This document shows, piece by piece, positions 20,519-47,658 of a stretch of DNA of 64,000 nucleotides; within the stretch, counting starts at the first letter, position 1; each line of letters starts with the position of its first letter. Below the pieces are notes generated by a model, which had not been told where the DNA came from, searched no databases, and was given only the letters and a program-made list of their open reading frames with translations. The position numbers were made by a program, and so were the translations under genes. The stretch covers positions 62,001-126,000 of the forward strand of contig QPGO01000191.1 of the NCBI GenBank assembly GCA_008632985.1, read 5' to 3'. The stretch comes from Psammoneis japonica (lineage: Eukaryota).

Positions 20519-22276
20519 AACATCTCACAATTTCGCAGATCGCAGAACATTGGTGTCATCAAGGTGACTCAAACACGACGGTGCACGGTGACCTCATGCG
20601 CGATTCGCGTTCGGTTTCCTGCCGTCATTTTGAATGGCCTTCTTCATTCTTGCCTTCTTTTCAGCTTTTCCTCACAATCTCTCATTGAATCTGTTGTCAC
20701 TGACCCCATTGTTAGTAATGCCATCCTCGGGTTAGACCGAGGTTTTCCTCTTTGACTTCTTGATGTTCCTGCATCTGCCATCAAGCTTCCAATGCTTGGA
20801 AAGATTGCTCAACAGCGCCAGCCAGGTCTTGGAGTTTTTTTTTTCTGGCGGCGTCACACTGGGAAGTGGACCAGCAGTTTGCAAGGTGCCAGTGTAAATG
20901 AACAGAGCAGCATGCAGCACTTTTCACTCTGGGTGTGCAGCGATGAGTGGCCTTTTTGAAAACCGGTAAAGCGGGTCAAGGGGGAGAATTGGGTCATTCC
21001 AGCAGATTGGCAGACCCTCAGCCAAGGCTGGGCACACAAGAAGCAACCCACAATGAAAAAAGGCAGCTTTGAAGTTGACCCAAGATCACAGCTATGCTCC
21101 TTTCCATGAGAGCAGTGTGCTGCACAAGCAATTGTCTCAGAAAGGCCTGGATGTGGTGCAGACTCCATGGCTTCCCGCCCCACAACACAGCGTCATGGGC
21201 ACTCTCACAGTGTTGGGAGTCTGTGATGATGATGTTGCAGAGTCTGCAATGAATTGTCAAAACCACAACACTGCAAACGTCCATTGTGAAACCTGCAGCA
21301 TTGTCCGCGGTGCTCCTCCTGCTTGTGCACTGCCCACATCTCTCCTGATGTTGCCAAAACACATGGTCAATTGCTGTGCTGCATGTTGTTTGTTTGGACT
21401 TTCAAAACAACATCTGAGTTGGATCCAGATCTTCATGGACACTGCACAACATGCAAGGCATCCTCAAACACATGCAAACACACACCAAAAAGATCCAGAT
21501 CTGATCTGTGGGTGCAGCATCTTCAACTTTGTTGAGCAGTTTTGGGACACTGCACACAACTGTTGCTGGATTTTCTGCACGAACTTCTTCATGCATGACT
21601 TTGGATGCAGCATGGCACGTTTTCTGGAGGAATTGCTGGAAACAGGGTTTCCCAGTTGCATTGTTGGAGTTTTCACCTTTTTCCAGGTGAATTTGTGGGT
21701 CTTCCTTCTTGGACATTGCTGGGTTTCATTCCTGCATGCCAACCACTGTCTCACACATGTTTCTGGGTTTGAGGGCACCTCCAATCTTCTGGGGAGCAAC
21801 CCATTGCCAGAGCTCCAGGAATGAACTGGTGCCCTCCTCCACCAGCATTCCTGGACTGTGCTTCAGGCACAGCATTGTTCTCATCTGGGGCCTGTGGTGC
21901 AATGCCGCGTGCATCAACAGAGAGTCAAGTGGAGCGCAACAAAATGATCCAAGTCAGTGCATGTTGGTGGAACTGGCTTTCCATGTGGCACTCCACCACA
22001 CAGTTTCTTCTGATTCTGAATGCAGCAAACATTTGATCATCAAGCCCCATCCATGGTTTTCTCATCCTGTTGGGTGCGGGACAAGACTTGCAGGCAAAGG
22101 ATTCTTTGACATTCTGGCTGCAAGAATGGTGGTCAAATGCATTCTTTTTTTGAGTCGCCAGAAAAACAAAAGAGAAAAACTGTTCTGAGGATAACTCACC
22201 AAATGTTTTTATTGGCGTTTGACTGCATTGTCTCCTTGGCTCTGCTGAAAATGCAAAAAGCAGAGCTGTTGAGGAC

Positions 22277-22748
22277 AGTCGAAGCTCGCGTGTCCGCGCA
22301 AGCTCCGAGTGCCTTCCCAACGTGTCGACTGGATGTCCACTCCAGATCGATGCCTCAGGCAGAATGCAAGTAGATGGAATCTGCTTGCGAGTGGTGACGA
22401 GCATTTGGTCTTTCACAAAAGTGCCAGTGACCAAATCACAAGCTGCCTAGACTGAATCTGCTGAATGCACCCAAACAGAGGTTGATCCGCAGGTTTGCAC
22501 TGGAGACTGGTGCAAACTTCAGGGCCAACCACATTCACAACAATCATCCAAATGCTGCTGAACCAATCTGTGGTTGGTCCAACATCTGTGCGAAGCCTGT
22601 GATCTCCAAAGCACCGCCTGTGATCCCCAAAGCATTCGGCTTGAGAATCAAGTCGACGTGGCGCGAAAAGAATTTCAACAAGAATTCCGATTGATGGAAG
22701 CACAGACACAACAGAGAATCTGGGTTGGTGGACAGACGAACCACGACT
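22277..22748 (-). repeat. 3' LTR of element A
   Basis: Colinear with 28069-28540; termini AGTCG...CGACT. Confidence 0.93.
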
Positions 22749-22894
22749 CTCCCTCTCATTCACAGATTCCAGCAACCAACAAGAAAATCACAAACGAGAA
22801 AGCTCACACAATTGGTGCAAGTTCAGAGCAAAGCTCCCACATCTTGACCGAGCCACAACACATGACAAACAAAGGAAGCGATGCTTCCAAAGTG

Positions 22895-23695
22895 CTGCCA
22901 CCCTTGGACCTTCAACCGGTTGTTCTCGAAGAGCTCTCGAGTCAAAGGCTTGGTGAGACAATCGGTGAGTTGCTCGGCCGATTCCACCTTGATCGCATTG
23001 AACTCATCACAATGCAACCAGAACCAATGCCACTTGATGAGAAAATGCTTGGTGCGATTGGTGATGCGGTGGTTGGCAGCCAGGTGGTGGGCGCCTTGAT
23101 TGTCTTCGAACATGCGTGCACGAACCGAAGTCCTGAGATCTTGGGAGATGTCTGGGGTAAAGACGATCTCAAGGAGCAGGTTCTTCAAAGGTGGGAGAGT
23201 CCAAAGAGCACAGGAGGCGGCTTGACACTCGGCTTTGAGGGTGGAGCAGGAAACAGCTGACTGGAGCTGCGATTTCCACACCAAAGGACATCCACTGAGA
23301 GTTGTGATGCATCCGGTGCGAGACCTCACAGAATTTGGGTCAGAATCTGCTTCGCAGCAATGGAGACCAGCAAAATCAGCATTGACCCATAAATCAAGAT
23401 CCAAACAACCGGTTGGAGATGGCAGCATCCCCTGATCATGCGTCCTTTTCAAGCAGCGGACCAGAGTCTTGACGGCGGTTGCGCGCGACTGTTTTGGGTT
23501 GGAATTGAAGCGTGCAACCTGACTGACGGTGAGGGAAATGTCAGGACGGGTGTTGGTGGACAAGCACAGGAGCATTCCAACGATGGAGGGATGGCTCCAT
23601 TCCTCCTGCATGGGATCTCCGTCCACATCAGTGCCAAGGGCTTGGGACGCCGCAGGGAGCAAGTTCGGTTTGCTGTCAACCAAGCCGGTGGCCAA
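22895..23695 (-). pseudogene. Element A RT C-terminus and RNase H
   Basis: SIVGMLLCLSTNTRPDI, NADFAG, SRTGC, WKSQLQ, FEDNQGA, TKHF, DCLTK; ends GW then CAG (inferred former TAG). Confidence 0.9.
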
Positions 23696-26605
23696 CCGTC
23701 CCGTCACCTCTACTTTCTGTTGCTGGCGCTCTCAAGGCGGCGTTCACGAGTCCCAAGGAGACAAAGGAAGTGGTTGAAGAGCACACCTTCCTGGTCATTT
23801 GGGACTCAGGAGCAAGCACATCGGTCTCACCTTGCAAGGACGACTTCATCGGGCCTCTCAAGAAACCACCTGTCACTGTCCGGCTCCAAGGTGTCGCAAA
23901 GGGCCTCCATGTGGCAGGTGTTGGACACGTCGCTTGGTCTTTTGTTGATGTTGCTGGGGTGCCTCGGACCCTGAAGGTTCCGGCCTGCTGCGTCCCCAAG
24001 TCCAAGGCTCGTCTCTTGAGCACAACCAGTCTCTTGCAGATGTGCTTGGATGAGTCTGTCGAACTGCTGTCGGACCGTGCCATCCTCAGTGGATCCAAGA
24101 ATCGCGAACAAGGACACAGGCGAGGTGTTGAAGTGTTGATTGAACCTTCAACTAACCCACCAGTTGGATGGGCCTGCGCGAATCAAGCAAGTCAACAAAT
24201 TTGTGAGGAGTTTCATTTGACGTTGTCGACGATTGTGGAACACAATCACAATGTCTCACCTGCTGAAAAGGAGCCACTGCATTGGCACTTTCGTCTCGGG
24301 CATCTGAGCTTTCGAAAGGTGCAATTTTTGATGCGTGCGGGAGTTCTGTCCCACTCCGAGGGCACCCGTTGTTTGCATGAACGCGCTTGTTGCATCGATC
24401 GTCCGCCCCTTTGTGCCGCACGCCAATGTGGAAAACAAAAACGCCGTCCCAGCCCCGGAAAGACTTCTCGTGTCGTCAAGGATCGAGCTGGAGCCTTGAA
24501 GAAGGATCAACTGTTCCCCGGTCAACGAGTTTCGGTTGATCATTTTGTTTGTTCCACTCGTGGTCGTCTGAAACATGCTTTTGGAAAGGAGAGCATAAAA
24601 CATCAGTGTTTGGGCGGAGCAATCTTTGTGGACCATGCATCCGGTTGTGTCAACGTTCAACATCAAACTCACCTCAATGCCCATGAAACTTTGACGGCCA
24701 AGAACGCATTTGAGGCTCATTGTCGTGATTGTGGTGTCATTCCCCAAGAATGTCTGAGCGACAATGGAAAGGCATTCATGTCGGCTAATTTCAGGGTTCA
24801 CTTGGAATCTTTTGCTCAAGTTTCAAAGTGCGCCGGTGCAGGAGCTCACCATCACAATGGGGTTTGTGAACGAGCAATGCACGCCGCGATGTCGATCGCA
24901 AGAAGTGTGATGTTGCACGCGGCGATCCATTGGCCTGACGTTGCGGACGCTGCTCTTTGGCCTTTGGCTGTGGACCACGCTGTTGTGCTTCACAACGCGA
25001 TGCCAGACCCATCTGCGGGTCTGAGTCCACAGGATGTGTTCACCCAGATGCGCAACCCTCACTCTCGGTTCCAGGATTGTCATGTTTGGGGGTGCCCTGT
25101 TTGCGTTCTTGACAAAGCTCTCGCCGATGGAAACAATGGCAATCTTTCGTGCTGTGGAGTCATTGCGTGGAAATTGTGTGGGACAGCACCAAGACAAGTC
25201 TGTCTGTCTGTCCTCAGTGAATTTTAACTTTGCGAAAAATGGATTTGACTGTTTTCTGATCAGGTGCATTTTTCTTCAACACATTTGCAAAAACACACCT
25301 GACCCGACAACAGTCAAGTCTGTTTTTGCACAAATTGTGTGAACATGACAGTTTCAGTGCAAAAACGTGTGGATTCTACAGGCGTCCTTGATTGTTTTAT
25401 GCTCTCTATGTCACGGGTCATTTTCAAAAGATTCCTGTTGAAACTGCCAAAGTGGAAACCCCGCGCGAGTCGGCATGTCTGTGTGGGACTCAGCACCGAG
25501 CATGCCTCATCAGTCCCGCCAGTCTTGAGTCTTGAAACGGGAGCCATCACTCCACAATTCCATGTCGTTTTTGATGATTGGTTTGCGACGGTTCCTGCCG
25601 ATGCCAGCTCGTCACCTGCCATTGGGTCTCCGGAATGGACGTCTCTTTTCGGAGACAGTGTGTGTCAACATGCTGTGGATGATGAAGAGCAGGCTGATGT
25701 CGACATCCGTCAAGAACACCCAGAATGTGAGCGCCGATCCAAGGAAATCCGTGAAACCGTCACCCGCCGGTTGCCTCCCAAACCCTCACAGGTCCCTCCT
25801 CCGGCTGCTCAGGCACCAGCATCTTCTTCCGAGGCCCCCTCTCATCCTGTTGTGGAACCCCCGGTCCCTGAGGTGGAGTCTGTGCCTCCACTGGAGTCTC
25901 CCACTGAACCCGTGGCTTCAGACTCGCCTCAGAGGGAGAGAGCACCCGCTGCCAACTCAAACACCCCACCAAGTCCTCAGAGGGAGCCTCCCACCCCTCG
26001 AAGTCTTTCTTCGGATGTCTGTCAAGAGAGGGAGTCACCACCTGTGGCTCCACCCAGTGCACAATGCCCCTCTCCAACCCCAGTTCATCGCTCAACCCGG
26101 ACTCGCGCTGTGCCCCAGCGGTTTGGACACGATGGATCTCAGGGACATGGATGCTTGTCTCACTTCATTGATTTCCATCATGCACACAAGTTTGACCACG
26201 GTTGCAACACACCCATGACTGCTCCTGCCGTGTGCAAGGCGTCGGTGTGCAAAGTCAAGGATCCGGACACGCTGTCGTGGGATGAGGCCATGTGCTCTTC
26301 CGATCACGACAAGTGGTTGAAAGCGGCTGAGATCGAGATTGCAGCACTTGTCCATCAAGGAACGTGGGTCGAGGCACCCACATCCGATGCTCAAACCAAG
26401 TTCCTTCCCGGCACTTGGGCATTTCGTCGCAAGCGATCACCTTCAGGCGAGATCAAGAAGTGCAAGGCTCGCCACTGTTGTCACGGCGATCTGCAGGAAG
26501 GAAGTCTGTTTGACACTTGTGCACCGGTTGTAGCCTGGAGCACGGTTCGAGCATTTTTGGCATTGAGTCTTGTTCTTGGATGGCATGTGGCATCCGCCGA
26601 TTTCC
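23696..26605 (+). pseudogene. Element A protease, integrase and RT N-terminus, inverted relative to the rest of the element
   Basis: IWDSGAS, WHFRLGH, C..C, VSVD, FVDHASG, SDNG, NGVCER, WGCPVCVLD, PQFHVVFDDWF, DPDTLSWDEAM, GTWAFRRKR, APVVAWSTVR. Confidence 0.9.
25134..25440. mobile_element. 307-bp MITE inserted in the element A integrase
   Basis: Splits LDKALADG / KLPKWKPR; imperfect TIRs caatggcaatcttt and aaagattcctgttg; possible 2-bp AA TSD. Confidence 0.75.
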
Positions 26606-27800
26606 AGGTTCTTGGATGCAAGGCATCGTTTTGCGTCCATCTTAGACTTGTGCGCTGTCTCAACAAGTGCTTCGCTCAAATTCTCTTTCACAGTGCGAAG
26701 GGCGTGCTTGAACTGCTGACCGTTTTCGCCATCCCCTCCAGCTTCCAGGCAAGCGTTGACCAAGGCAAGCGTCAGCTTGTGGTCGCACTGACCCGCAACA
26801 TCTAACTCTTGGGCCGCAGTCTTGAACTTGGACAGGAGCTGGGAGAGATCCTGACCGGCGAACTGGGAGGGCTTGAGTTCCTCTAGCTGCTTTTCGAGCT
26901 GCTTGAAGCGTTCGATGGACGTGCTCTGAAGGATCACGACGAGAGCCATCCAGACTTTCGGAAAGCAATCCGACTCTTCCGTCTCCAGATCCAGCTGCAC
27001 GGCCAGGCTAGCCTCCAAGGAGTTCTTGAGAAACTCAGTGGCGTCCCTGTCATTGGATGAATCGCAGGAGTCATGCTTGGCGAGTTGAGGTGCGACAAGA
27101 CGGGTGACGCTCGATTTGGAATGCCGAGGATGTCCTTCAATGCAAGACGTCACGGAAGTTGAGTCCTCGGGGTCCTGCAGGCAAGTTGCCGCATCCAAAC
27201 CGCAGTCCTTGAGATGCTTCATCACGTTCTTCTCAAAGGTTGCAAGATCTCCCTTCTCATCAAACTTGGTCGAAAGTCCGGCAACGCAGCAGGCCTTGCT
27301 CTTCTGGGCAGAAGAAACATGGTGGGAGCGACACTGATTTGGTGACATTGGACTGGAGTTGGGAGTTTCCAATCCGGACCAGTCAGCCTTGGGTTTCCCA
27401 CCGGTCCAAGCAACTTTCTCAGTGGAACCAATGGAGATAATCCCCCCCCATCTCAGGAGCCTTGGGTTTGCAGACTTTCGTCTTCGGCATCGCCGCGGCT
27501 GCCATGGCAGCCATGGCCTGAACAGTGCGACGCTCGTCTTCCGTCATGCCAGAGCCTGCAGCGGGCTCGTCATCATCATCGTCCGAGTCGTCATCCGAAT
27601 CGTCCGGGCAAAGTTCCAAGGGCGGAACAGGCTCGTCGTCTGGGTCGTTAGGGTCCTGAGGTGGTGGATTATCCCCCGGTGGAGGTTGATCCTCAGGAGG
27701 CTGATCCTCGAACACTTCGGGGTCGTCAGCCATGTCCGACAGCGCGCTTGAAGCTGTCGAGTCGGACCAATCGTCTGGGACGTTCTCAATCAAAGAGTGC
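26606..27800 (-). pseudogene. Element A gag region (frameshifted, truncated by the inversion)
   Basis: Acidic/Pro-rich N-part, MGG...WTGGKP, HLKDCGLDA..CLQDP, LKPSQFAGQD; lies directly downstream of the 5' LTR. Confidence 0.75.
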
Positions 27801-28068
27801 GAGCTCGGAGAACTCTCTTGGGTCTCAGGAGGGCCATGGGGTGGAGCAGGGCCTGAGATGGTGCATGTGCAAAATCAACAATGAACCTTCTGGCGGAACC
27901 AGCCATTCAGCTGACGGAGTCAGTCGCAGTGCTTGACATCAAGAGCGCGGAGCGCAGTTGATGAGGAGTGCTGACGGTGTCAGAGCCATTGATGGGGTTG
28001 CTCTGGTTTGGGCGTCCCCAACCGGAAGCGTGGAACATGTTAAGTTGCCCCAATTGGGCGAACTGGCC

Positions 28069-28540
28069 AGTCGAAGCTCGCGTGTCCGCGCAAGCTCCGA
28101 GTGCCTTCCCAACGTGTCGACTGGATGTCCACTCCAGATCGACACCTCAGGCAGAATGCAAGTAGATGGAATCTACTTACGAGCAGCAACGAGCATTTGG
28201 TCTTTCACAAAAGTGCTGGTGACCAAATTACAAGCTGCCTAGACTGAATCTGCTGAATGCACCCAAACAGAGGTTGATCTGCAGGTTTGTGCTAGAGACT
28301 GGTGCAAACTTCAGGGTCAACCACGTTCACAACAATCATCCAAACACTGCTGAACCAATCTATGGTTGGTCCAACATCTGTGCAAAGCCCATGATCTCCA
28401 AAGCACCGCCTGTGATCCCCAAAGCATTCGGCTTGAGAATCAAGTCAACGTGGCGCGAAAAGAATTTCAACAAGAATTCCGACTGACAGAAGTGCAGACA
28501 CAACAGAGAATCTGGGTCGGTGGACAGACGAACCACGACT
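28069..28540 (-). repeat. 5' LTR of element A
   Basis: Colinear with 22277-22748. Confidence 0.93.
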
Positions 28541-30899
28541 GGGACACTTCTTGGAAAAGGACACATGGCAAAATCAAGCCAGCACTTTCATGATGTTCTC
28601 ACCTTGATGCCTGCTTCTTTTGGTTGAGTTGACAGTCATCTTAGCGTTTTTGGTGTTCCTTTCATCAACATTGTTTTCTTTGTCTGCTTCACCCTGACAT
28701 CCATTCACTGCCCCTGCCATGAAGGACTCTGCCACTTCTTTGTTCTTTGGCTCAAGTGTTCCTGCTGGCAGCAATGTCATTGGCATTGGGGTGCACTGTG
28801 CCATGCATTGCAATGTGATGGTGCAATCCCATTGTCAGCATTGTCCTGTTGTTGCTGCTTTTCACCCTGCAATGCAACCACATTTGCTGTTCTTTCATTG
28901 ACATGGCCAATTGGCTGGTCTCACAACACACCAGTCACTGCTGTGTCACCCAGTTCTTGGCTTGAGTGAGACAGCAGAAGAAGCTGCTGGAGCAGGATGA
29001 GACCCCCCGTCAGGCATTGCCAGGTTCATCTGCAACACAAGTGCTTCTCTCCCAGACCTGCAGTCCAACATTTGCTCCCATCTCTACCAAACTGCAGAAG
29101 CTGTTGGAGCAGGAGACCCGCCACTGTCCATGCCTCTGTCAGACCTAGAGATGATGGCCAGGGCCAGGCCCATGTCTGCAACATGCAGAAAAATGCTGCT
29201 CCCACCAGAACTGCAGTCCAAGACACCCCATTTTCTGTGAAAGGTGATGACAACCCATTTTGGTGCTACCCAGAGCTCTTGAAATGCTGCCACAAGGTGA
29301 TCTGCAGTGGGTTTGCACAAAGGGATGACAATTGGGTGCACGTTGCAGGTGAACACAGAATGTCCAGCTGGCTGGTGCAGACAGGTCAGTTGTGAAAAAG
29401 TGCGCAATTCAGCCTGACTGGCACCTCTCTGCACTGGTTGTGACATGCAAAAACACCACACATTGACAACAGCCCAGCTGGCTGGACATGGACAAAGGCA
29501 CAAGAAGCAGAGGGGGCATGCTCAGGCTCTGCTGCAGATGGGGGGATCCTCCACCAAGCCAACCCAGGGGCAACAACCAGAACATTGAGAGATGGCAGAT
29601 GCTGTTGCTGAATTCCCTCATTTGGCTGAGGAAGAGGAAGTGCCTGCAGATCCCTTGCAGCACTGAAGACCACCCACCAGATTTCTCAAACTGTGAAAGG
29701 GGTGCCAGCAAAACATTTTTCAGAAAGTGTGCCAGCAAACAAATCTTGGCATCAGGCACTGTGTTTCATGATGGCACAGGCTGCAAGAGTGGCCCTTCAG
29801 ACAAGGATGCCCACCTGCAGCTGCAGGCAGCTCAGCTTGCCACAAGCCCCCCAGATCAGAAGTGCAGCCAGCTGCCAAATGTTCTCAGACAGATTGCTGA
29901 AGAGAAGAGAGATCTTGCTTGGCAAGAAAGGCAGAGAGAAGTCAGGTGGGTTTGATGAGATTGAGAAGTTGAAGGCAAGGATCAAAAACTTGCATGCTGG
30001 AAAGAAACAAGGCAAGAGCAGAGCACAAGCAGGAGCAACAAAAGCCAGAAATTAGAGTCAGCAGGTCTTCTTCACTCTGACTCTGACATGTGATGCCCAA
30101 CCAAAAGGTGCAACTCTGATGGCTTTGGAGGAAACTGGGAAGGTTGTGGACATTGCCCCATCTTCACCACCACAGTTGCAGTGCCAACAGCTGTTCAGCA
30201 AATCAGATCACAGAGGACAGGCAACAGACAAGACTCCATCTGGAAAACATTCTCTCCACCAAAAAACAAAGACAAAGTTGATGCTGATTTTCTGGCTTCT
30301 GGAGGAGAATGCACTTTGCTTGTTTTCCAGTCAATGAACCTGGCTGACACAGGTGCTGATGCCAACTTGCATGTGTTTGACACAAAAAGAGTCAAAACGC
30401 TGCACAAAGATGCTGTGAAACATTTGGAGCTGATGGGAGCATTGATCTTTGTCGAGGGGTGACATCACATGTTCCAAGTGGCAAGTTGTTGGTGGAAATT
30501 GCCAGAAGAAGAAATCAAGCAAAGTTCACCTTGGGGTCATTTTGTGACCAAAGAACCAAGTGAAAGAATCCCAGTTGCAGCAAGATGCCTCAGAGCACAA
30601 GTGCAAAGATGATGACTCTCAAGGCACAGCTGTCTTCTGAGCCTTTTCTGAGGGCCAACCTGTGATTGTGATTGTCTCCCTCAAAGGAGTTCAGCATTTG
30701 TTGATGCAACATGTCCCATCTGCCACTGCAGAATGTTGCAAGTGTGTTCGAGTTCTGCCATTTTTTCAAAAGCCATGTGTGCTTCTTTGTTGGAAACAAA
30801 GCAAGACAGCTGCAGCATTTCAGCAACCTTTGTTGCCACTTCAGGTTTCTCCAGTCATTGGTGAGAGGGACTCTGTTGCATCTGCTGCTGGGCTGGGGT

Positions 30900-33250: not shown

Positions 33251-34911
33251 TCTGATGTTGCTGTTGGCATGTTGCTGGGAAACAAGGATGGAGATGGAGG
33301 TGGTGCAACACCAGATTTGCCAGTTGGAGATTCGCGTGGAGCAGCAGATGGAGCACCAGAAGTTTTGTCGCTGGGTGAAACACCTGGAGAGCTTCAGCAC
33401 TTGGTGCACCTCCAGAAACAGACAGCAGTGCAGCTCTGCTGAGGGAGCCAACAAAGGCACAAGTCCTGCATTTGATTGGCTGGGCTCATCAGATGGAGAG
33501 CTGGAGGGTGCAGCAGATGACATTGGTGTTGGCACATCACTGGGAACCAATGATGGAGATGAAGGCAGTGCAGTGCCAGATTTGCCAATTGGAGGTTAAC
33601 GTGGAGCAGCAGATGGAGTGCCAGAAGTTTTGTCACTGGGTGTTCACCCAGAGCTTCACTTGGCACACCTCCAGAAAAAGATGGTGCAGCTGCTGAGGGA
33701 GCCAACAAAGGCACAAGTTCTGCATTTGACTGGCTGGGCTCATCAGATGAAGAACCAGAGGGTGCAGCAGATGATGATGGTGTTGGCACATCACTGGGAA
33801 CCAAGGATGGAGATGAAAGCAGTGCAAGAACACCAGGTTTGCTGATTGGTGATTGACGTGGAACAGCAGATGGTGTGCCAGAAGAGTCATCACTGGGTGT
33901 TTTGCTTGGAGCTTGCCTGGCGCACCTCCAGAAGGAGATGATGTGGGTGCTCAGAGAGCCAACGAAGGCACAAGTCCTGCACTCAATTGGCTGGACTTGT
34001 CAGATGGAGAACTGGAGGGCGCAACAGATGATGATGGAGTCGGCACATCACTGGGAACCATGGATGGAGACAAAGATGGCATGACAATGGATTTGACAGT
34101 TGGAGATGTGGAAACTGGGGACTTGAGAAGGTTTGTCAGTGGGGGCTTTGCTGGCCTGTTCCAGCTCCAGGTGCTCCGCGCGGGTTCGATTCCCATCATT
34201 TGGAAATTTGTGCATTTGGCGCAATTGACTTTTTCCAAATCCGTTTTTTGCCAAATCGAAGGGTAAGTGCGAGTAAATCTGGATGGAGGGCCACGTCATA
34301 ATTGGTGATTGGTTAAGACACATGGATCGAGTGGTGCTGCAGCGACACGCTCACAATCTGGTCAGGTTTGGGTTCGCATTGACAGTGTTGCTGCTTTCCA
34401 TTTAGACTTGAGGTGTCGTGCTTGTTCTTTCGTTGCATCGAGATTTATTCGCTTTGTCAGAGCCAAGACGAAAAAGACAGAGCGAAATGGTTTTGAATGC
34501 AATTCGTCATGGACGATTGTTTGTTGTGTTGTTTGCATGGAACGTGCAGCTGTAGAAACGGTGCTGAGCTGTGCGCGATGCGTCAGAATTCGGATTGATG
34601 CGCACGATGATGCGTCTCGTGTCGCTTGTTGTGACATCCACAAAAACAGCTTGCAATGGTGATGCTCGCAAAGACAGTCACTGTCCTCACATGTGCAATG
34701 GGTGTGAAGGGACTGCGGCATTGGGCGACATGCCCGAGCGTGTGCTCGACAATGTTGGTTGACATGAATGACACAGGACTGATCACCCTGATGTCGGGTG
34801 GCTGTGTAAACCTGTTGTCACAACACAGAGAAAGTGCAGCCATCATGACCATGCAGACTCACAGCTGTGTGTTCCTGGTGCGGGACCTTTGCACCCTTTC
34901 TCTGTCACAGG

Positions 34912-36456
34912 ATGGCAGCAGCGGCAGCACCAGCAGCAGCACTTGCGGCGTTGGCCGCGGCAGCTGACGTTGACGCAGTTTTGCAAGTTTGTGGTGTTGC
35001 TGACCAGAACGCAAGGGCGAGGTTGGTCTTCCATGAAGGGTCCACGACTTTGGAAAACATCGCAGTGATGGAGAGTGATCACGATGTGGAAGACATGGTG
35101 CAGAGGGCGTCTCGTCGCACGGTGGCCGACGGATGTGTGACTCTTGGGACTGTTCAGATCAAGAACTTGCAGGCGCTAGTGTGGTGGTGCCAGGATTTGC
35201 TCAAACAGAATCAGCCATTGGTTGTGGCAGACTTTAATGTGGCAGCTGTGGCTGCGGCCCGGAATGGCAGGCGTGTCGAAAAGGAGCGCACAGATTCGGA
35301 CGCGTCGGCAAGCGGTCTCGTAAAGTTCAAGCCCGATGACTTCGATGTGTGCGAAGATGCTTTCTTGAATCTCTTGGCACAGAAATTTGGCGTGTTGAAA
35401 GAACCCCTTCGCTGTGTTGCAAGGACAATGCCAGCTCCGGCTGCATTCACGGATGCTCAACAACAGCGTGTGTGCGAGATGCCATTGAATGGCGCCGCAC
35501 ATGACGAGGACAACCGCAGCGTTTGCCGTGTGTTGAAGGAATGCTTGGTCGACACGGCAGGATGGGCATGGATCGAACCATTTGACGCAACAGAAGATGG
35601 ACGTGGAGCATTCAACGCATGGGTTGACCATTGCAATGGACAGGGCGAGTTGAGCAAGCACATCCATCTGGCTGCGGCAACTGTTGAAACCTTGTTTTAT
35701 AAAAAGGAAGGATCGCTCCCATTCGAAAAGTTCAATGAGAAACTTGCCAGTGCTTTTGCTGCTTTGAACAAATCACCGGACGACCGCAAATCTGAACGAC
35801 AGAAAGTTGACATTCTTCTAAAAGGGATCCGAACGGATGACACTCGTCTCATTGCAGCAACGGCTGTCATTGGCAGTCAGCACCCTCGTGACTTCGCGGG
35901 GGCATGTGCTCATTTCTCATCCGAAGTCTCTCGTTTGCATGCAGGTGCTCAGTTGGAAGCCTGGCGTTGCTCGAAGCGCAAGATTTCTGAAATGAGCCGT
36001 GGTGGCGGCGGTGGCCGCGGTTTTTATCGAGGTCGCGGTCACGGAGGAAGATTTGGACGTGGGGGTGGACGCGGACGTGGTGGTGGCCGTCAAGGCAGAG
36101 GTGGCGACCACACTACGATGATCAATGGAGTCGATGTATCCGACCCTGCAAGGAGCTTTAGCGCTCAAGAATGGGAAAAGTTGCAGCACAATGGAGGCAT
36201 GAGCTGCGTGTTCCAAGCTCGCGAACGAATGGGTCATGGACGCGGTGGTGGCCGTGGGTCTCCCGCAGGTCAACAAGAACGCGATGGGGGCGGCAGGCAT
36301 GCAGCTGAAGCCCAAGTCTGTCAAGATGGCCAAGGCCAAACCCAACAACAGGATCAGGAGCAAAGGAGTGGCGGGCGTGGTCGCGGTGCTGACCGGGATC
36401 GCGGTGGATGCAATGGACGCACCTTCGGTCGGGGAGCCCACAATGGTTCCACCTGA
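34912..36456 (+). pseudogene. Element B gag
   Basis: Long ORF with DGRGAF..W..HCNG, FEKF..KL and an RGG-rich C-terminus; only 2 Tyr. Confidence 0.85.
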
Positions 36457-39400
36457 CTCCTTGGGGTGGCAACAGCTGCTGGAGCATTGGCGCATTTGGT
36501 GCACTTGTCGTTTTTGCTTGTGTTGCTCTTCTTGCTGTTGACCAAACCCCACCCAACATCTCATTTCAAAGGAAAGGTGACAAAGAGGCACATTGCCATG
36601 ACATCAAAACGTGTGATCCGATCGACGAGTTCTGCACAGATGACAAATTTGACGACACCTGGGTTTGTCGCTCGAAATGAATGTGACACTCACGCGGACA
36701 CTTGTTGCGCTGGGGCGAACTGGAAGCTCATGGAGATGACAAATGAAGTGTGCGAGGTGCATCCATTTCTGGACTCTTGCGAGCTGATCAAACAGATTCC
36801 TGTGGCACGTTGTTGCACCGCATGGACAGATCCGGAAACGACTCGTGAACATTTGCTGGTTGGTGATCAAATGCTCTGGTTTGGGACCGACATGGAACAC
36901 TCACTTTTGAATCCTAACCAACTCCGTGCGCACAACACACCCGCACACGACAACCCTTGCGACACCCGAAACGGATTTGGCATTGAAGCTGACGAAGCTT
37001 TCATCCCTTTCAATGCCACGGGGACAATTGTGTCTTTCAAGTCTCGTGTTCCGACGGATTGGGAAGCACAGAACTTGCCGGTTACACTGTTGACAGGTGA
37101 CGCATGGGATCCAGCACAGACAGACATGGGCTCACCGGAGTGCACTAGAGAGCAGGCGGAGATGCGCACTGTTCGATCATCAACCTCTGGCATGCGACAA
37201 GAACAGGTCTCGGAATTAAGGAGCGAGAAGGCAAGGTCCCAAGCAGCACGCTGGGGCGAGGTCGAAATGCAACTGTCGTCTGTGTCTCCTGTCTGTCAAC
37301 TTCAATCGTTTTGCGACAGGCTTGTCAGCTCAGTGAACATGGCTTGTACATGTCGCGACAACGTGGACAAGAGGCAGAGGGCAGTCAAAGATTTACACAG
37401 CAAGGATCGGCACTCGAAGGTTGATGCTGAAGAGCTGGCCCGAAAATGGAGCATCGGTTTGGAAATGGCAAAAGACACTCTCAATGTAACAACTCAGCGC
37501 GGTGTGCGAACGGCGACCCAGCCGATGTCACGAAGAGTGAGGGTGGATCATCTTGACTTGCATTGGAAGCGTCTGAAAGGAACATGGTTTGTGGACACTT
37601 TGACATCCAAGGTGAAGTCTTTGCTCGGCAACACGTGTGCCAATGTTTGCACTCAGGGCAAATTCGTGAAGGTTGTGCCAATGACCGCCAGGTCGGAGGC
37701 AGGTTTGTCTCTTGTTGAATTCACAGACGACGTGGGTGTGCCAGAATGTCTTATGTCGGACGGGGCAGGAGAGTTCACTGGAAGGAGCACCGAATTTGTG
37801 AGACATGCACGATGCATGAGAGCACAATTGAGAACATCAGAGCAGGGTCGGAAGAACCAGAACCAGGCAGCGGAGCGTGAAATTGGTTTCTTGGCCAAAT
37901 GTTGGTGGCTGCGGATGATGAAGAAGAAGGTGCCAAAGCGATCATGGGATTTTGGTCTTGTTTGCGAGTCGAAATTAGTGTCGCACATGGCAAGAGGCAG
38001 GGATGAGAGGACTGGATGTGAGGAGGTCACTGGGCAGACACCAGAGACAGGCGAGCATTTGGATTTTGGTTTCTGCAATGTGGTGTGGTGGTGGGACAGG
38101 CCCAACAAGCCGAGTGCAACTGACGATCCTCGAAGGCTTGGACGGTGGCTTGGTGTCTCACACAAAGTTGGCTCGGATGTGTGCCATTGGATCACCACGG
38201 AAAGCGGGAAGATTGTCTCCAAAACATCGGCCGAGCACGTGACACAGGCTGACAATGTGCAACCGGACATTCGTGTTGAGGTCGACAACTTTGATGAGCA
38301 GCTGGAGAAGCAATTGGATGACACTGGCTTTGTCTTAAAAGGCGATGAAGCTGTGCCCGCATTCATGTTGGACGATCTTGCAATTGACGGCAACCTCGGT
38401 GTGGAACATGAGGGCGGCATCATGCCAGAGGACAAGGAACATGGCAACATGCCATCACCCGACGAGCGACCAGACGACGACGACAAGCAGGCAATCGATC
38501 AACACCTGGGAATGGAACTCATGTTTGACATCGGAACCAACAGTGAGCGACGTGGTGTTGTAACGAAACGTGCAAGAGGACAGGATGGGCGTCCAATTGG
38601 GACTCGGCATCAAAACCCATTGTTTGACACTCGCGAGTGCAAAGTGGAATGTGCCGACGGAACCACAGACAAGCACACAGCCAATGTCATTGCCGAGAAC
38701 ATGTTTGCTCAGGTCGACAGCGAGGGCAACCAGCACTCTATCTCACACGAGATGCAGGACCACGAGAGGAGTGACGATGCGGTGTCGATTGCTGACGGCA
38801 CCGTACAAACCGCTGATGGGAAGGAGAAGAAGAAGATCACAACAAAAGGATGGAAGTTGTTGGTCGGATGGAAGGATGGTGGCTCATCTTGGGTCAAACT
38901 TAAAGATCTAAAGGACTCTGACCCCATTGAAGTTGCTGAGCATGCTGTTGCGAACAGGTTGACGGAGGAACCTGCTTTTGCTTGGTGGGTCACACATGTC
39001 CTGCATGAACGGAATCGCATCATGTCCAAGGTCAAGAAGAAGTGCTGGCGCACGACTCACAAGTTTGGGATCTGATCACCCAAGTCCACGGAGGACGCTT
39101 TGCGGATTGATCAGGAAACGGGGACAGATCATTGGGCTCGTGCAATCAATGAGGAGATGGCAAAGGTGAAGGTGGCATGGTGCGAGCACGAAGCTGAAAC
39201 CCCTCAAGTCGTCCGGGAAGGCAAGGGCACAACTTTGCATGGTCATCAGGAGATCAGGTGCCACATGGCATTCGACATTAAAATGGATTTCACCAGAAAG
39301 GCAAGGTTTGTAGCTGGCGGACACACGACAGAGGCCCCGGCATCGATCACTTGCTCTGGCGTGGTTTCCAGAGACAGCGTGCGACTTGGATTCTTGTTGG

Positions 39401-40788
39401 CAGCCTTGAATGGCATCGATGTTGCGGCGATTGATCTGGAGAATGCTTGTCTCAATGCACCGTGCGCAGAAAAGACATGGTTTGAAGGCAGAAAGGAATG
39501 CGGCGAGTGCAAAGGAAAGGTGCTTGTTGTCACTTGGGCATTGCATGGCTTGAAGAGCTCGGGACACTCTTGGAGGTCTGCACTGTCATCGGTCTTACGT
39601 GACTTGGGCTTCGAATCGACGAGAGCAGACCCAGATGTCTGCTTGCGTGCGGCGACTCGTGAGGATGGGCACGAGCATTGTGAAATGCTTTTGGTTTGTG
39701 TCGATGATGTGCCAATCATTTCCCATCAAGGGAAGTCTGTTGTTGCTGCAACAGGTGAACACCACACCGTGAAGCCCGGCAGCGAAGGAGAACCAGAAGT
39801 TTGTCTTGGAGCTAACGTTGAGAAGGTTCAGACTCAGGATGGGCGCACAATCTGGGCGAGTTCACCGAGGTCACATGTTGGATCGGCGATTGAGACTGTG
39901 GAAGGCCCATTGGATGAAGACGGCAATGGAGAGGTTCTGAAGAACAGTGCAAAGGATCCACTGCCCCCGAAGTGCAAACCGGAACTGGACGTGACGGACG
40001 AGTTAGGCCCCGACTTGGTGGACAGGCGTTTACAGCTGACAGGGATTTGTCGTTGGGCGATCGAGTTGGGTCGTATCAACATCTTGCATGAGGTTTCAAT
40101 CCTGTCTCAACATCAAGCTAATCCAAGGAAAGGACATCTTGAGGCATTGCACCATGTGTTTGCGCATGTGAAGAAACACCAGAACGTCGGACGCATCGGA
40201 TTTGATCCAAAGGAACCGGTGATTGATGAATCTATTTTCAATTCGAACGCAGACTGGACCGAGTTTTACGGGGACGTCGAGGAGGAACTGCCGCCACGGG
40301 CACCGAAGCCTCGTGGTAATCCGGCAAACATCCGTGCATTTGTTGACGCTAACCATGCAGGGAATGTTGTCACTCGCAGGTCGCATGGCGGGATTCTGAC
40401 ATTCGTCAACAATGCGCCAGTGGTGTGGTTCAGCAAGCGGCAGAACACGGTGGAATCGGCAACGTTTGGAAGTGAATTGGTTGCAATGCGGATTTGTAAG
40501 GAATTGATTGTTGCTTTGCATTGCAAGCTTTGTGTGTTTGGGGTTCCCCTTGAAGGACCGGCAAGTGTCTTTTGTGACAATCGCGGTGTTGCAAAGAATG
40601 CAAGTGCACCCGAGTCGGTTTTGCACAAGAAGCACAATGCCATCAACTGCCATGTTGCACGAGAAGTGGTCGCAGCGGGAATTATTCGTGTTGGCAAGGA
40701 GGACACGGAAACGAACTTGGCCGATCTGCTTGCGAAGGTGGTCACAGGAGAGCGGCGATGGAAGCTTTGCTCGTGCATTTTTTGGCAA
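36457..40788 (+). pseudogene. Element B pol (same frame as gag; premature TGA at 39073-39075)
   Basis: ECDTHADTCCAG, HSLLNPNQLR, SDGAGE, AEREI, GRWLGVSH, FDIKMDFTRKARFVAGGH, ALHGLKSSG, LVCVDD, FVDANHAG, SATFGSE, FCDN, NLADLL; ends IFW then CAA (inferred former TAA). Confidence 0.93.
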
Positions 40789-43700
40789 TGTCCCGACACC
40801 AAGGCCAGGCACCTGTGGCTCGCACCCACACATCGTGGCCTCCCAAGCCAGCACATCTGGTGGTTTAATTTGGGTTCTTGTGGTTTGCCTCTCTGTGAGA
40901 GGATGTCACATGTTCAGACGAATCGGCATTGTCATTGCCGTTTCGCGGGGACCGAGTAAATCTGGATGGAGGGCCACGTTGCAATTGGTGATTGGTTGAG
41001 ACACATGGATCGAGTGGTGCTGCAGCGACACGCTCACAATCTAATCAGGTTTAGGCTCGCATTGACAGTGTCACTGCTTTCCATTTAGACTCAAGGCATC
41101 GTGCTTGTTCTTTCGTTGCATCGAGATTCATTCGAGTGTGCACTTTACATGCATTTTCGGGTGTACACTCACCTTTCTATTTTCGAAACGATCAAAATTG
41201 AATGAGTCAATTGTGCTAAACTGCACAGAAAATTGGCCTCTCGCGTGATGAAAAGCAGAGCACCTGGAGCTGGAACAGGCCTGCTTGGAGCTTCACTCAG
41301 GACAGTGCCTGAAACAGATGATGGAGCCACTGATGGAGATGAAGAAGGCACAAGTCCTGCAAGAGCAGAGCAACATGCTCTGATCAGTCCTGTTGGAGAC
41401 GTGGAGGGTGTTGAAGAAAGCACACCATGCACCACGCACATCTGCCACAGCAGCGGCAAAGCATGGACAGAATCCTGGTCATGAGAAGGGCACCACCACA
41501 ATCTGCAAAAAGCAAAAGCTCAGGACATGGCTTTCTTTGGCACTTGGGGGGCAGGTGCATCAACAACCACAAACAATTCCCTCACTGCAGAAAGCATGTT
41601 GGCACTCTGAAGACACAGAGGAGAGAACACAATGGCGCTGGCCAGTGCACAAAGTGAGAACAGAGCACGATCTGCCTCAAAACATTCACCCATCACCCAC
41701 AAAGAAGATGACAAAGACAAGTTTTCTGCTCTGTTGTTGAAGGCTGTGGGGCATTGGCAACACCCTCATTGCCACATCGCCGCCCCCACACAACAACTCA
41801 CACTTGTCAGGTCAACGTCGTGCAAAGAGGAAATGCTCAGATGTGTTGATGGCCAAAGAAGTCAAAACAGCTTTCACAACCAACACTTTGTCTTTCTCAC
41901 ATTTGCGTCCACCCAAACCCAGCAAGGCAGAGAAAGAATGAGGGCTGCAGCTCTGGAGATCATGTGCAGGTGCAATTGATGTGACCACATTAACGTCATT
42001 GGCTGATGTGAAGGCGGGGGCTTGCAGACACAACCCCTCAAAACTCATTGCAGCAGGTTGGGGTTGCAAAAGCAGCAAAAGCACCACACTCCAACCACCT
42101 CTGCAACAAAGCACAATGATGCTCTTTTGTTCAAGAGCAGCAACAGAGCCTTGCAGCCAAAAAACACACACACATGGCTCACCCCCCACCCACCAGCATT
42201 GTTTTTGTTTGTTTGTCATGTTGACTCCCTGGCATCAGCAGCTGTTGTGTCAATCTTGTGCCAGCCTTTCTGAGCACTCCGCAGCTGTGTTTTCCACACC
42301 TCATCCTTGGAGCAATTGCTCTCATTCTGTGACTTTTTGGCACTGGTTGGGAGTTTCTCATCATCTGCAGGGGGCATCAGCCTCTTCAAAAAATGATGCT
42401 CAGTTGGGACATTCATCATCAGCCACATGCATGCACCAGCACTCAGCATGGCATTGTCATGTTTGATTTTGGCACTGGCAAAAACTTCCAAAAATTGCAA
42501 TTTTGGTTGTCACAGAGGCTCTGCATGTGCACGGCTGGGGCACGCAACACATGTCTTTTCACACTGTGTTTGAGCATCAGCACTCAACATTCAAACAAAT
42601 GCTCACATCCACCCATGGAGCATCTTCAATCTCCTGGCCAAACCAATGGTGTGTCCTGCCTGGGTTTGCTCTGAGCCCATGATTGAAGGGATGTGTGGTG
42701 TGGGAACATGGCCTGGGGTGCAGGGAGCATGCAGTGACTGCACATGTTGTCAGCGTTGGGCTGGCGCTGACACCCATGCTCTTGTGTCAGGCCTCTCCAC
42801 TGAAGAGCACAGCAGCCACATGCTGCTGGTTGCAGGCCCTGCCATCAGCTGCTGCTGCTGGCCACTCTGCCCTCTGCCACAGCCACTCTCTGGTTGCAAA
42901 AAGGGCCTTTTGCTCAGATCAGCAGAAGCAGCCCACCTGGGTGCACAGGTCATGGCTGGGTTTGGGCTGCCAGATGCCTGCTGTTTTGTCATGAACACAG
43001 CAGCCACATGCTGGTCACAGGCCCTGCCATCACCTGCTGCCAGCTCCTTTGACACAGTTGCTCTCTCTGGTGGTCACAGAGAGAGTGTTTTTTGCTCAGA
43101 TCAGCACAAGCAGCCTGCCCGGATGTGCAGGCCCTGGCTGGGTTTGCGCCACTGGACTCTTGCTGTTTCATCATGATGGTTGTGCCATTTCTCTTGGTGG
43201 TTGGCTGCACAGATGCAAATCTCCTGACTCATCATGGAGCACTGTTCTGAGTTTGGCAGAGGCTGTGCTGGCACTTGGAAGAACAACAAAGAGGGGCCAA
43301 AATGATGCAGGATCAACAGGGATGTTGCCTGAATCAGGCCAGCTGGAAGTCACATTGGTGGTGCTAAAAATCAAAAGAGCTGGACTTTGTTGTGGGTGTG
43401 GAGGAGATTTTTTGCACTCTGCTGTCAGCAGCCCAGTGGAGCACACTTGTCTTTCTCTGCCCTTGGCAGTGAAACAGCAAGTGAGTGCTCATGCAGTTTC
43501 ACTCTGTGATCAACATTGGAAGGACTCACCAAGCTTGCTTTTCTCTCTCTACAAAACTGCAAAAAGCACATCATTGACAAGTTCACATTGAGATTGTCAG
43601 CACCAATGACAACCCAGCAGCCATGCATGGCTTTGCACTTGGCTTGTGATGTCCACTGAGCAAACTGCTGGTGTCTTCTTCTGCTGTGCTGACCTCTCCT

Positions 43701-44572
43701 GTGCTCTGCTGGGATTCACCCAATGCTCCCTCTGGGCCTGTCTCTTTGCTTTGGGCTTTCTGCTTTGTTGCTTGGAGTGCTTGTTGCCAGGTTGACAATG
43801 ATCAAGTGCGGAGCGGGATTCAATCCTACAGTGCTGCGATGATGGCATTCTCAAGACTTGCTGACTAAAGAAATTCTGGTCCGTGACATCTTGCAAGGAT
43901 TGCCTCAACGTCCTTTTTGGAACCCGAGACCGAGCACCGAGCATGGAAAAGTGGTGTCAAGGAAAGTTGGGCAGTTTCTTTCGTGTCACATGATTCAGAC
44001 CTCGGACGAAGACATGCCCGATGAAAATTCACCTTTGCTTGCTTCTGATGCGGGTGCATGGATCAACCTCTTATAGAAAACGAGGACACCAAGAGGACAG
44101 AGAGAGGGGGGTCTATTTCAGTAAGGCAAATTAGTAGTTGACATCATAAGTTTCAGTGTTGCAAAGCTGTACTTGCTTTCGAACAAATGCTGTCTTGCTT
44201 CAGGGTTCACTCGTAACATTGGACCTGCTATCGTTTCCTTGAGCCGCAGTGACGTCCATGCACCTACAAAAGCAAACGGACATTTGCGAAACCCTCCCGT
44301 ATTGCATAATATCTTGATGGACACTAAACTAGATATTTCAGTAGCATCATTCATTTCTTCCAATTGACCAATCAAAACTACGCAGGGTACAATACTATAA
44401 TAAATCTCTAGTTCTCAGAACTCGCTAAATTCAATTCGCTCAAGGCGGGACTGTTCTACAATTCCAAGTATTGTGCTGTGTATTCCAACTAGCTAAAGCA
44501 GTGAAGGTCCATGATTAATATTGCTCTATACATTTTCCGTTGTGACTAACCAGTAATATGTGTCCCGAGATG

Positions 44573-45793: not shown

Positions 45794-46294
45794 GGTTGAC
45801 CTGTGAACCAGAAGCGATTCTGAAAATTATGACGACTTGACCGAGACGAGAGATTCTTCGGTGCGCATCTTATCAGTCTTTAGTACAAAAGTCTCGTAGA
45901 AAGTACGTACCGTGTGAACGTCGAAGAAGGGGCATTCCCGTGGTGAAAGCAAGTTTTGTAATCATGTGGCAATGGCTTGGGTGGTATTATCGATTCGTTT
46001 TTCAAAACGTTATAAACCGGCGACACCATGATGGTTGTGTTGGTCGTTTGCGGCGCGTTTTTTGTTTTTTTCGCTCCCGTAGTCTTGCGTATCGACTTCA
46101 GTCACCCATGCTATGAGCGAGCCACGCAGAAAGCGAGCACGCGCGCAGAGTGTTGCGGCGATCCCAGAATCTGGATCTCAGATTGTCTTGCATCTTCATC
46201 CAGAAGCCAAAGCAGTCACCTTTTCGACTTTGTTGGGCAGTTTGGGAGGTTTATTGGTATCGCCTGTTGTTGCGCTCACTGTCACTTGTGCAAG

Positions 46295-47378: not shown

Positions 47379-47658
47379 NNNNNNNNNNNNNNNNNNNNNN
47401 NNNNNNNNNNNNNNNNNNNNNNNNNNNNNNNNNNNNNNNNNNNNNNNNNNNNNNNNNNNNNNNNNNNNNNNNNNNNNNNNNNNNNNNNNNNNNNNNNNNN
47501 NNNNNNNNNNNNNNNNNNNNNNNNNNNNNNNNNNNNNNNNNNNNNNNNNNNNNNNNNNNNNNNNNNNNNNNNNNNNNNNNNNNNNNNNNNNNNNNNNNNN
47601 NNNNNNNNNNNNNNNNNNNNNNNNNNNNNNNNNNNNNNNNNNNNNNNNNNNNNNNNNN
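47379..47658. other. Assembly gap (280 N)
   Basis: Run of N. Confidence 1.

Follow-up and report, generated by a model that had tools for sequence, protein, structure and literature searches.

Why should the dinucleotide TA almost vanish from transposon and repeat DNA and remain common in the genes beside it? The question is raised by a 64-kb stretch of DNA from the diatom Psammoneis japonica (assembly GCA_008632985.1, contig QPGO01000191.1, positions 62,001 to 126,000), hereafter called the window; positions are counted from its first nucleotide. Its central 23.5-kb region holds two Ty1/Copia long terminal repeat (LTR) retrotransposons of different families, designated TE1 and TE2, amid relic blocks and two tandem arrays. 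The sequence of this region and of several smaller blocks records a near-saturating, TpA-restricted hypermutation of transposon and repeat DNA, in which A:T pairs were converted to G:C pairs by transitions, with TG or CA, never CG, as the products.

Extent and limits of the TA depletion

TA was counted 0–12 times per kilobase (ratio of observed to expected frequency, obs/exp, 0.00–0.21) over 21–44 kb and was low again at 54–55 and 62–64 kb; most gene-bearing kilobases contained about 15–57 TA each. The longest TA-free gap spans 1374 nt (41991–43365; P = 1.3e-22 at the background of 0.036 TA per nt). When the blocks were pooled, 131 TA were found in 28,542 nt (TA obs/exp 0.08; CA 1.68, TG 1.58, CG 0.50), compared with 1267 in the remaining 35,178 nt (TA 0.53; CA 1.17, TG 1.16, CG 1.05). 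Outside the blocks, TA obs/exp was 0.45 in long open reading frames (ORFs) and 0.66 in other single-copy DNA, and because the latter lies outside long ORFs, neutral unique DNA is not depleted. These ratios bear out the initial annotation of this DNA, which had described TA as nearly absent from the repeat blocks and normal in adjacent genes; the equal TpA loss at neutral single-copy sites that it had named as a counter-sign was not found. AA obs/exp was 1.20 both in the blocks and outside, and TT, AT and the other dinucleotides barely differed either. The GC content was 0.51 in the blocks versus 0.455–0.496 in the single-copy classes outside.

At the block edges, the depletion ends within tens of bases. 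At the right edge of the main region, a TA at 43866 is followed by others at 44072, 44074, 44114 and onwards; near 55 kb, a TA at 54668 is followed by those at 55064, 55080 and onwards; near 62 kb, TA at 61905 and 61944 are followed by the next only at 62765. The limits first given for the main region (20520–44070) were reproduced, with the zone from 20520 to 21093 already depleted and TA density returning at 44072. The further blocks named at the time (47.7–48.6, 53–55 and 62–64 kb) were also recovered, and one at 3744–4524 had been overlooked. The depleted features are as follows, with the coding segments labelled for protease (PR), integrase (IN), reverse transcriptase (RT) and RNase H (RH).

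3744–4524: small intergenic TA-depleted block, 3 TA in 701 nt, obs/exp 0.06, CpG 0.53, without Pfam domain
20520–21093: left edge zone, 5 TA in 574 nt, obs/exp 0.14
21094–22272: relic block, no TA from 21094 to 22191, CpG obs/exp 0.16, no recognisable domain
22273–28540, minus strand: TE1, Ty1/Copia LTR retrotransposon, TA obs/exp about 0.06, CpG 0.6–0.95
22273–22748 and 28065–28540: LTRs of TE1, 476 nt each
22898–23689, minus strand: C-terminal RT and RH segment of TE1
23704–26604, plus strand: PR-IN-RT segment of TE1
26599–27447, minus strand: gag of TE1
28541–34269: repeat block, TA- and CpG-depleted, containing the two tandem arrays
31027–31988: tandem array with a 402-nt unit
33253–34070: tandem array with a 257-nt unit
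34270–41134, plus strand: TE2, Ty1/Copia LTR retrotransposon, TA obs/exp about 0.1, CpG 0.8–0.96
34270–34451 and 40953–41134: LTRs of TE2, at least 182 nt of LTR
34849–36456, plus strand: gag-like ORF of TE2
36457–39075, plus strand: PR/IN ORF of TE2, 872 aa from stop to stop, 0 Tyr
39076–40959, plus strand: RT/RH ORF of TE2, 627 aa from stop to stop, 1 Tyr
41135–44071: TA- and CpG-depleted block, TA obs/exp 0.03, CpG 0.14
47659–48637: T-rich TA-depleted block beside the N run 47379–47658, TA obs/exp 0.12, CpG 0.21
53169–55063: intergenic TA-depleted block, CpG near-normal (0.62–0.82)
61945–64000: TA- and CpG-depleted block running past the end of the window, TA obs/exp 0.04, CpG 0.09

An LTR pair, an RVT_2 domain and an integrase upstream of the RT were found in both TE1 and TE2, as in Copia elements. 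The RVT_2 match reached E = 1.8e-10 in TE2 and 18.8 bits, under the cut-off of 31.6, in TE1, where a gag_pre-integrs domain was detected as well (E = 3.8e-08). A full polyprotein relative could be mapped onto the elements as gag, IN, RT and RH. A Pfam search of 27 ORFs from the small and relic blocks returned no family at E ≤ 0.001; a match to Bac_rhodopsin among them (E = 0.0048) fell below the cut-off and was taken as chance. In TE1, the PR-IN-RT segment lies on the plus strand between gag and RNase H on the minus strand, which denotes either an internal inversion or an assembly error; a single opposite-strand joint within TE1 (25134/26131) was found in a public sequencing run (X1, described below). 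DNA devoid of TA has no TAA or TAG stops and therefore yields long false ORFs on both strands, a hazard for annotation: the depleted region contains 17 ORFs of at least 200 aa, several of them antisense.

Direction and timing of the change

The four large pol ORFs (872 and 627 aa in TE2, 564 and 500 aa in TE1) encode 0, 1, 0 and 0 Tyr, respectively, a scarcity already remarked on in the initial annotation. They are correspondingly composed of 2.9–5.5% Cys and 3.8–5.7% His, compared with 1.0–1.9% Cys, 2.1–3.4% His and 1.4–3.6% Tyr in five flanking genes. The altered Copia motifs CVDD, LHGLK, PVCVLD, KCKAR, CAPV and LLCL are all readable in the translations. The 120 relatives that best matched the TE2 RT/RH ORF averaged 3.75% Tyr, 1.2% Cys and 2.5% His, and 119 of them had at least 1% Tyr.

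Conserved Tyr columns were defined for the TE2 RT/RH ORF as those with Tyr in at least 70% of up to 59 relatives. At the 16 columns so obtained, TE2 has 1 Tyr, 8 Cys (TGY, where Y is a pyrimidine) and 7 His (CAY). Retention is 91–100% for conserved Asp, Glu, Gly, His, Trp and Pro, and Ile (8/16) and Leu (24/32) are retained in part, with changes as expected from codons that contain or span TA. For TE1, 67 relatives were used after 12 of the 79 taken had been dropped for a Tyr content of their own below 1.8%; the 13 conserved columns hold no Tyr, 9 Cys, 3 His and 1 Phe. In the two elements together, 1 of 29 conserved Tyr is kept, 17 have become Cys, 10 His and 1 Phe, so that 27 of the 28 changed codons read TGY or CAY. 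Both elements are dead copies, virtually Tyr-free and with CVDD in the catalytic motif.

The same was seen at the nucleotide level in a codon-threaded alignment with 20 metagenome relatives. At 20 sites of conserved TA, the window has 9 CA, 8 TG, 1 GA, 2 TA and 0 CG; four control relatives hold TA at 18/19, 18/19, 17/19 and 16/18 of such sites. In the same alignment, conserved AA was kept at 35 of 44 sites versus 2 of 20 for conserved TA. The GC content of TE2 is 52.7%, compared with 48.6% in the relatives. No close nucleotide-level relative of the elements was found (best identity 71%). A substitution spectrum restricted to conserved trinucleotides comprised 106 sites, only 6 of them at TA, and was replaced by the dinucleotide and flank tests. 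The ancestral state was TA in both comparisons, and one transition, at one or the other of its base pairs, accounts for the change. The polarity from TA to TG or CA that had been proposed at the outset is upheld by the conserved Tyr columns and by the conserved TA sites, and so is its strand symmetry, the two products being comparably frequent (17 Cys, 10 His; 9 CA, 8 TG). Neither of two patterns that would have pointed elsewhere was seen: the relatives do not themselves encode Cys or His at these positions (119 of 120 and 143 of 150 have a normal Tyr content), and TpA does show an excess of A→G/T→C. By eye, Cys and His along TE2 showed no clustering into strand runs, at the few sites available.

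The two LTRs of a retroelement are identical at integration. In the TE1 pair (476 nt), 31 positions are mismatched: 18 lie in 9 reciprocal TG↔CA swaps, 5 are TA versus TG/CA, 5 are CG versus TG/CA and 3 are of other kinds; 19 CpG and 2 TA are shared. The TE2 pair (182 nt) has 15 mismatched positions, with 4 swaps, 5 TA-type sites and 2 positions at neither TA- nor CpG-type sites, and none of its 10 CpG has changed. The tandem arrays do not go through reverse transcription, and there too each pair of copies differs by 5–10 TG↔CA swaps. A TG↔CA swap implies two independent hits on one ancestral palindrome. The mutation thus occurred at the DNA level, in place and after insertion.

If the elements had been edited before integration, as double-stranded RNA by an ADAR-like A-to-I activity or as cDNA, and then inserted, this would explain why block edges coincide with apparent element boundaries, and in animals RNA editing is known to hypermutate retroelements from A to G. 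APOBEC3 (G→A) and ADAR (A→G) are likewise deaminases that inactivate retroelements by context-specific transitions, and ADAR produces the A→G class. These enzymes act on cDNA or RNA before integration, so that LTRs share the edits, whereas here TA-type differences between LTRs copied from one template number 14 in TE1 and 9 in TE2, the 9 and 4 swaps among them, and the tandem arrays and domain-less relic blocks are equally affected. Contigs at single-copy depth also differ from the window at TA sites (see below). ADARs prefer a 3' G, opposite to the preference for a pyrimidine at +1 found here, and the TAY context is unlike theirs. Editing before integration is accordingly considered very improbable.

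A rough estimate of rates was obtained from the TE1 LTRs. Because about 25 ancestral TA sites with a survival per LTR of about 0.18 stand against a background divergence of 3 in 476, the mutation rate at TA base pairs would have been about 270 times that of other sites and about 16 times that of CpG. This bears on a further candidate, error-prone repair or loss of mismatch repair (MMR) in heterochromatin, with a Pol eta-type change of WA to WG (W, A or T) or the T>C signature of MMR deficiency. Pol eta favours the WA motif, and this explanation shares with the data the A:T→G:C class, the overlap of a 5' T with WA and the confinement to DNA that is probably silenced. Against it, AA obs/exp does not differ between the blocks and the DNA outside, conserved AA is largely kept where conserved TA is not, and the conversion of about 90% of TA at about 0.6% divergence elsewhere (TE1 LTRs) is beyond an effect of repair fidelity. 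We regard it as improbable, and the Pol eta candidate of the initial annotation is disfavoured on the same AA ratio.

Sequence context, CpG decay and recurrence in other sequences

The 131 surviving TA were examined for their flanks; for TE2, survival and gains were taken relative to 111 kb from 18 relatives in the same orientation. Survivors are enriched in TTAA (4.45x), CTAA (2.9x), TTAG (2.6x) and CTAG (1.85x) and almost absent from ATAC, ATAT, ATAG, GTAC and GTAT (0.00–0.24x). Within TE2, TA survival is 0.04 in RTAY (R, purine), 0.13 in YTAY, 0.22 in RTAR and 0.46 in YTAR, and the gains per kb are uneven in the matching sense (YTGY +11.1 versus YCAY +2.9; RCAR +8.9 versus RTGR +4.6). These values fit independent hazards on each strand, with the A in TAY about four times more susceptible than the A in TAR: a model built from RTAY and YTAR predicts a survival of 0.14 at mixed sites, and 0.13 and 0.22 were observed. 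In a site-by-site test, confined to sites where at least half of 20 relatives have TA, RTAR gave 4 CA and 0 TG and YTAY 8 TG and 1 CA, so that 12 of 13 sites changed in the predicted direction. The base pair that changes is the one whose adenine precedes a pyrimidine, which amounts to 5'-TAY-3'→TGY on either strand or, read from the other strand, RTA→RCA. Purine-preceded Tyr codons of TE1 lean the opposite way from the RTAY sites of TE2 (see below), with 6 Cys and 2 His.

Two repair processes were considered in this connection and disfavoured: a repair like very-short-patch repair, given that CTAG is among the most resistant contexts, and GC-biased gene conversion, which is not context-specific. 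Very-short-patch repair causes CTAG scarcity in enterobacteria. It resembles the present pattern in a net change of TA to CA or TG through DNA-methylation-associated repair and differs in being CTAG-specific, whereas here CTAG is among the least depleted contexts (1.85 versus 0.00–0.24).

The blocks differ in their CpG content. CpG obs/exp is 0.01–0.17 in sub-blocks at 21–22, 29–34, 41.5–44 and 62–64 kb and about 0.5–0.96 in TE1, TE2 and the blocks at 3.7–4.5 and 53–55 kb; every CpG-poor block is also TA-poor, and the converse fails. Between LTRs, 5 of 24 CpG sites differ in TE1 and 0 of 10 in TE2, with about 80–90% of TA gone. Two Copia relatives from metagenomes, L040 and L054, have a CpG obs/exp of 0.03–0.06 with 13–14 of 15 Tyr kept; since their Tyr columns are intact, CpG decay occurs without TA decay, in their case presumably in other hosts. 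Methyl-CpG decay is thus distinct from the loss of TA, confined to the older blocks and slower by about an order of magnitude. It is recognisable in the sub-blocks and in the CG versus TG/CA sites of the TE1 LTRs and does not explain the TA loss. The two processes are alike in that a palindromic dinucleotide yields TG or CA on either strand, in their confinement to silenced repeats and in their presence at the same locus; they differ in that methyl-CpG decay hits C rather than A or T, is much slower here and is separable (L040, L054). Misrepair of the TDG/MBD4 type was rejected; it would raise CpG, and no rise was seen.

Contigs from one public study (runs X1–X3 of one sample) were compared with the window over 18.5–38.5 kb, with X2 covering mainly the gene flank and X3 contributing no coverage; 66% of the sampled words of a 10-kb stretch (70% of it transposon) were present in the study, and the differences cited by position below are among 40 of 963 that were listed. 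The initial annotation had called for a comparison with raw reads, in case these should have TA where the assembly has TG or CA; this was approached through the contigs of X1, which reproduced the TA-less sequence. X1 contigs at the depth of the neighbouring gene (54–57) cover depleted DNA with TA-less sequence. One at depth 54 over 21349–22272 has 6 differences, including a TA/TG site, a CA↔TG swap and a CA/CG site, and one at depth 30 over 28829–29761 has none. One substitution and 2 insertions separate X1 and X2 from the window in the gene flank; these contigs and the assembly are therefore not the same consensus. Among the listed differences in contigs at single-copy depth, TA of the window is replaced by CA at 20713 and 20716 and by TG at 22193, with a CA↔TG swap at 22041–2 and a CA/CG site at 22198. 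Whether strain, allelic or error, differences of this type suggest that the process was active recently. Transitions predominate among the family copies: A>G was counted 181 times, C>T 213, G>A 236 and T>C 188, compared with 8–22 for each transversion class. The summed contig depth exceeds the single-copy value of 57 in all depleted bins, and individual depth-54 contigs also cover depleted DNA. Some X1 contigs stand at about half depth (30–34 versus 57; 26878–27138 and 28829–29761), and these would fit haplotype-specific sequence in a diploid with diverged alleles in the repeat block.

Elsewhere, TA obs/exp was at least 0.5 in 75 of 80 metagenome relatives. Three contigs from metagenomes of the Joint Genome Institute (JGI) had values of 0.25–0.30 (L004, L053 and L059), and their conserved columns held Tyr/His/Cys in the numbers 2/7/3, 0/3/3 and 1/2/2, respectively. 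Tyr-poor proteins were also found in the database (P0020, 0.3% Tyr; P0156, 2061 aa, 0.05%; P0206, 0.26%), and P0020 shows other Cys/His choices than the window at the same columns. Public protein sets include products of TA-less DNA, of which P0156 is an example.

These observations bear on whether the pattern is an artefact of sequencing, base calling or assembly at a modified base, the composition of a TA-poor donor, or the outcome of selection. Some platforms are known to miscall modified motifs systematically, and the public run may be the assembly's own data. Strand-dependent misreading would, on the other hand, split contigs at half depth, whereas those at depth 54–57 carry one fixed product per site, and the same replacement of Tyr by Cys or His recurs in the three JGI contigs and in database proteins from other sources. 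Inherited composition is excluded by the LTR swaps, and selection cannot maintain Cys in place of the Tyr of the RT catalytic motif (CVDD). Taken together, these explanations are hardly credible.

Candidate mechanism and relation to known systems

We give about even chances to a block-confined hypermutation of TpA by a dedicated DNA base-modifying activity that would be guided by repeats or chromatin, with adenine deamination as the favoured chemistry. The enzyme would deaminate adenine to hypoxanthine, and hypoxanthine would be copied as G; it would need T at –1 and prefer a pyrimidine at +1, as a CDA-fold (TadA/ADAT-like) deaminase might. The elements are irreversibly inactivated, with Tyr codons, including that of the RT YxDD motif, turned into Cys or His codons and TA-containing Ile, Leu and Val codons changed. 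The chemistry itself is put forward tentatively; it is favoured because of the trinucleotide motif (absolute at –1, preferential at +1), the pure transitions and the near-saturation. In the substrates of TadA/ADAT, U lies directly 5' of the target A. The wider proposal that diatoms possess a natural transposon-directed DNA adenine deaminase, recognising repeat or silenced chromatin and converting the A of 5'-TAY-3' to hypoxanthine on either strand, much like a base editor for adenine found in nature and as an A:T-directed counterpart of repeat-induced point mutation (RIP) that originated apart from the cytosine-based defence of fungi, is a doubtful extension.

A mutagenic mark on the T of palindromic TpA in silenced repeats, such as 5-hydroxymethyluracil (5hmU), 5-formyluracil or a further decorated base, would lead to the same products: the marked base would mispair with G, or be excised and misrepaired, giving T→C and playing at A:T pairs the part of methyl-CpG decay. 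On a palindrome the mark could be kept up on both strands, as CpG methylation is, and it would suit the strict dinucleotide specificity and the sharp, domain-like confinement to blocks that show CpG decay; the RTA→RCA rule suits a T-directed enzyme as well as an A-directed one. Modified thymine at TpA has been reported from the telomeric repeats of kinetoplastids (base J) and from dinoflagellates (5hmU), and 5-formyluracil can pair wrongly with G. The rates estimated from the TE1 LTRs (about 16 times that of CpG and about 270 times background) are very fast for passive decay, and a literature search for diatoms, 5-hydroxymethyluracil and transposable elements brought up, in the text available, only a dinoflagellate review. 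We consider a thymine mark unlikely, though it is the chief competitor of adenine deamination.

Several points weigh against hypermutation by a guided adenine deaminase. The composition and feature results come from the single 64-kb window. The public study is possibly the assembly's own source, and the comparison with the window used its contigs rather than raw reads. At 24991 and 35032, all other family contigs have TA where the copy in the window has CA; copies must for this reason have been hit independently and unequally. Tyr codons after a pyrimidine gave 10 Cys and 2 His and those after a purine 7 Cys and 8 His, a difference that is marginal (Fisher's exact test, one-sided p = 0.058) and drawn from sites that partly overlap those of the site-by-site test. 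At RTAY sites of TE2 (39076–40785), 9 CA and 2 TG were found where the simple rule predicts equality; this lean, like that of TE1, may reflect a strand-biased episode or noise. The chemistry is inferred, with no enzyme or modified base seen and no enzyme search made. Agents that target A and agents that target T hit the same base pair and are inseparable by sequence, and to our knowledge a natural enzyme that deaminates adenine in DNA is not known from any eukaryote. That the process serves in defence is a reading of its outcome rather than a result.

The closest known system in outcome is RIP in Neurospora and other Ascomycota. It shares near-saturating transitions confined to repeats, sharp limits, dinucleotide specificity, action on integrated DNA and the ruin of coding capacity. 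RIP converts C:G to T:A, chiefly at CpA, producing TpA and leaving the DNA AT-rich. The opposite is found here: A:T is changed to G:C at TpA, TpA is destroyed and GC is raised, and the chemistry cannot be cytosine deamination. At conserved sites, 17 of 18 changed TA have become CA or TG, and the blocks have a TpA obs/exp of 0.08 with CA and TG at 1.58–1.68. This polarity, opposite to that of RIP and of 5-methylcytosine deamination, had been recognised in the initial annotation. The process works like RIP in outcome and fails its defining base and polarity. Adenine base editors built on TadA produce A→G in DNA by adenine deamination, and the natural TadA/ADAT substrate has U 5' of A; these editors are engineered laboratory constructs, and we know of no natural DNA-directed counterpart.

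No report of TA→TG/CA hypermutation in diatoms or other eukaryotes was found in a literature search that left most subscription journals and supplements outside its reach. In the parts of the texts that were available, Maumus 2009 (PMC2806351) does not mention such hypermutation; Hoguin 2023 (PMC9998398) describes DNMT4 relatives in many diatoms and mentions only these DNMT4/RIP relatives, which bear on cytosine chemistry and not on A:T; Krasovec 2019 (PMC6604790) ranks CG first among dinucleotides in mutability and leaves repeats aside; and PMC4504042 offers only the term 'Tpase-like'. A prior description is possible given the scope of this search. The TAY context rule, the separate and slower CpG decay, the reproduction in contigs and the cases elsewhere are new over the initial annotation.

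If genome-wide, the pattern would represent a second, chemically different form of heritable repeat-directed hypermutation, outside the fungi and on A:T pairs; we know of no natural DNA-level system that acts on A:T pairs. It would then point to an enzyme not described before, whether a DNA adenine deaminase or a TpA-specific mutagenic thymine modifier, of possible direct interest for base editing, and it would explain how some diatoms kill Copia elements. A TA obs/exp below 0.1, an excess of TG and CA and Tyr-free pol genes provide a signature for phylogenetic profiling of the trait and its gene.

The DNA of the window is nuclear. Its flanking genes are ordinary housekeeping genes (TCP-1 chaperonin, NUDIX, AAA ATPase, class IV aminotransferase, NifU and CRAL-TRIO), and the best matches of a 917-aa dehydroquinase/shikimate dehydrogenase in the window are clusters whose commonest phylum is Bacillariophyta. 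The genes at the edges of two of the depleted stretches are as follows.

19460–20491, minus strand: gene whose start adjoins the left edge zone, with the zone 20520–21093 directly upstream of the start
60640–61800: gene adjoining the rightmost block, whose left edge lies just past the gene

A gap of 280 N (47379–47658) truncates the ORF of the class IV aminotransferase (46028–47378) and adjoins the T-rich TA-depleted block at 47659–48637. Tandem repeats at 10047–10755, with copies 70–87% identical, lie in otherwise normal DNA, in the kilobase with the highest CpG obs/exp of the window (1.49).

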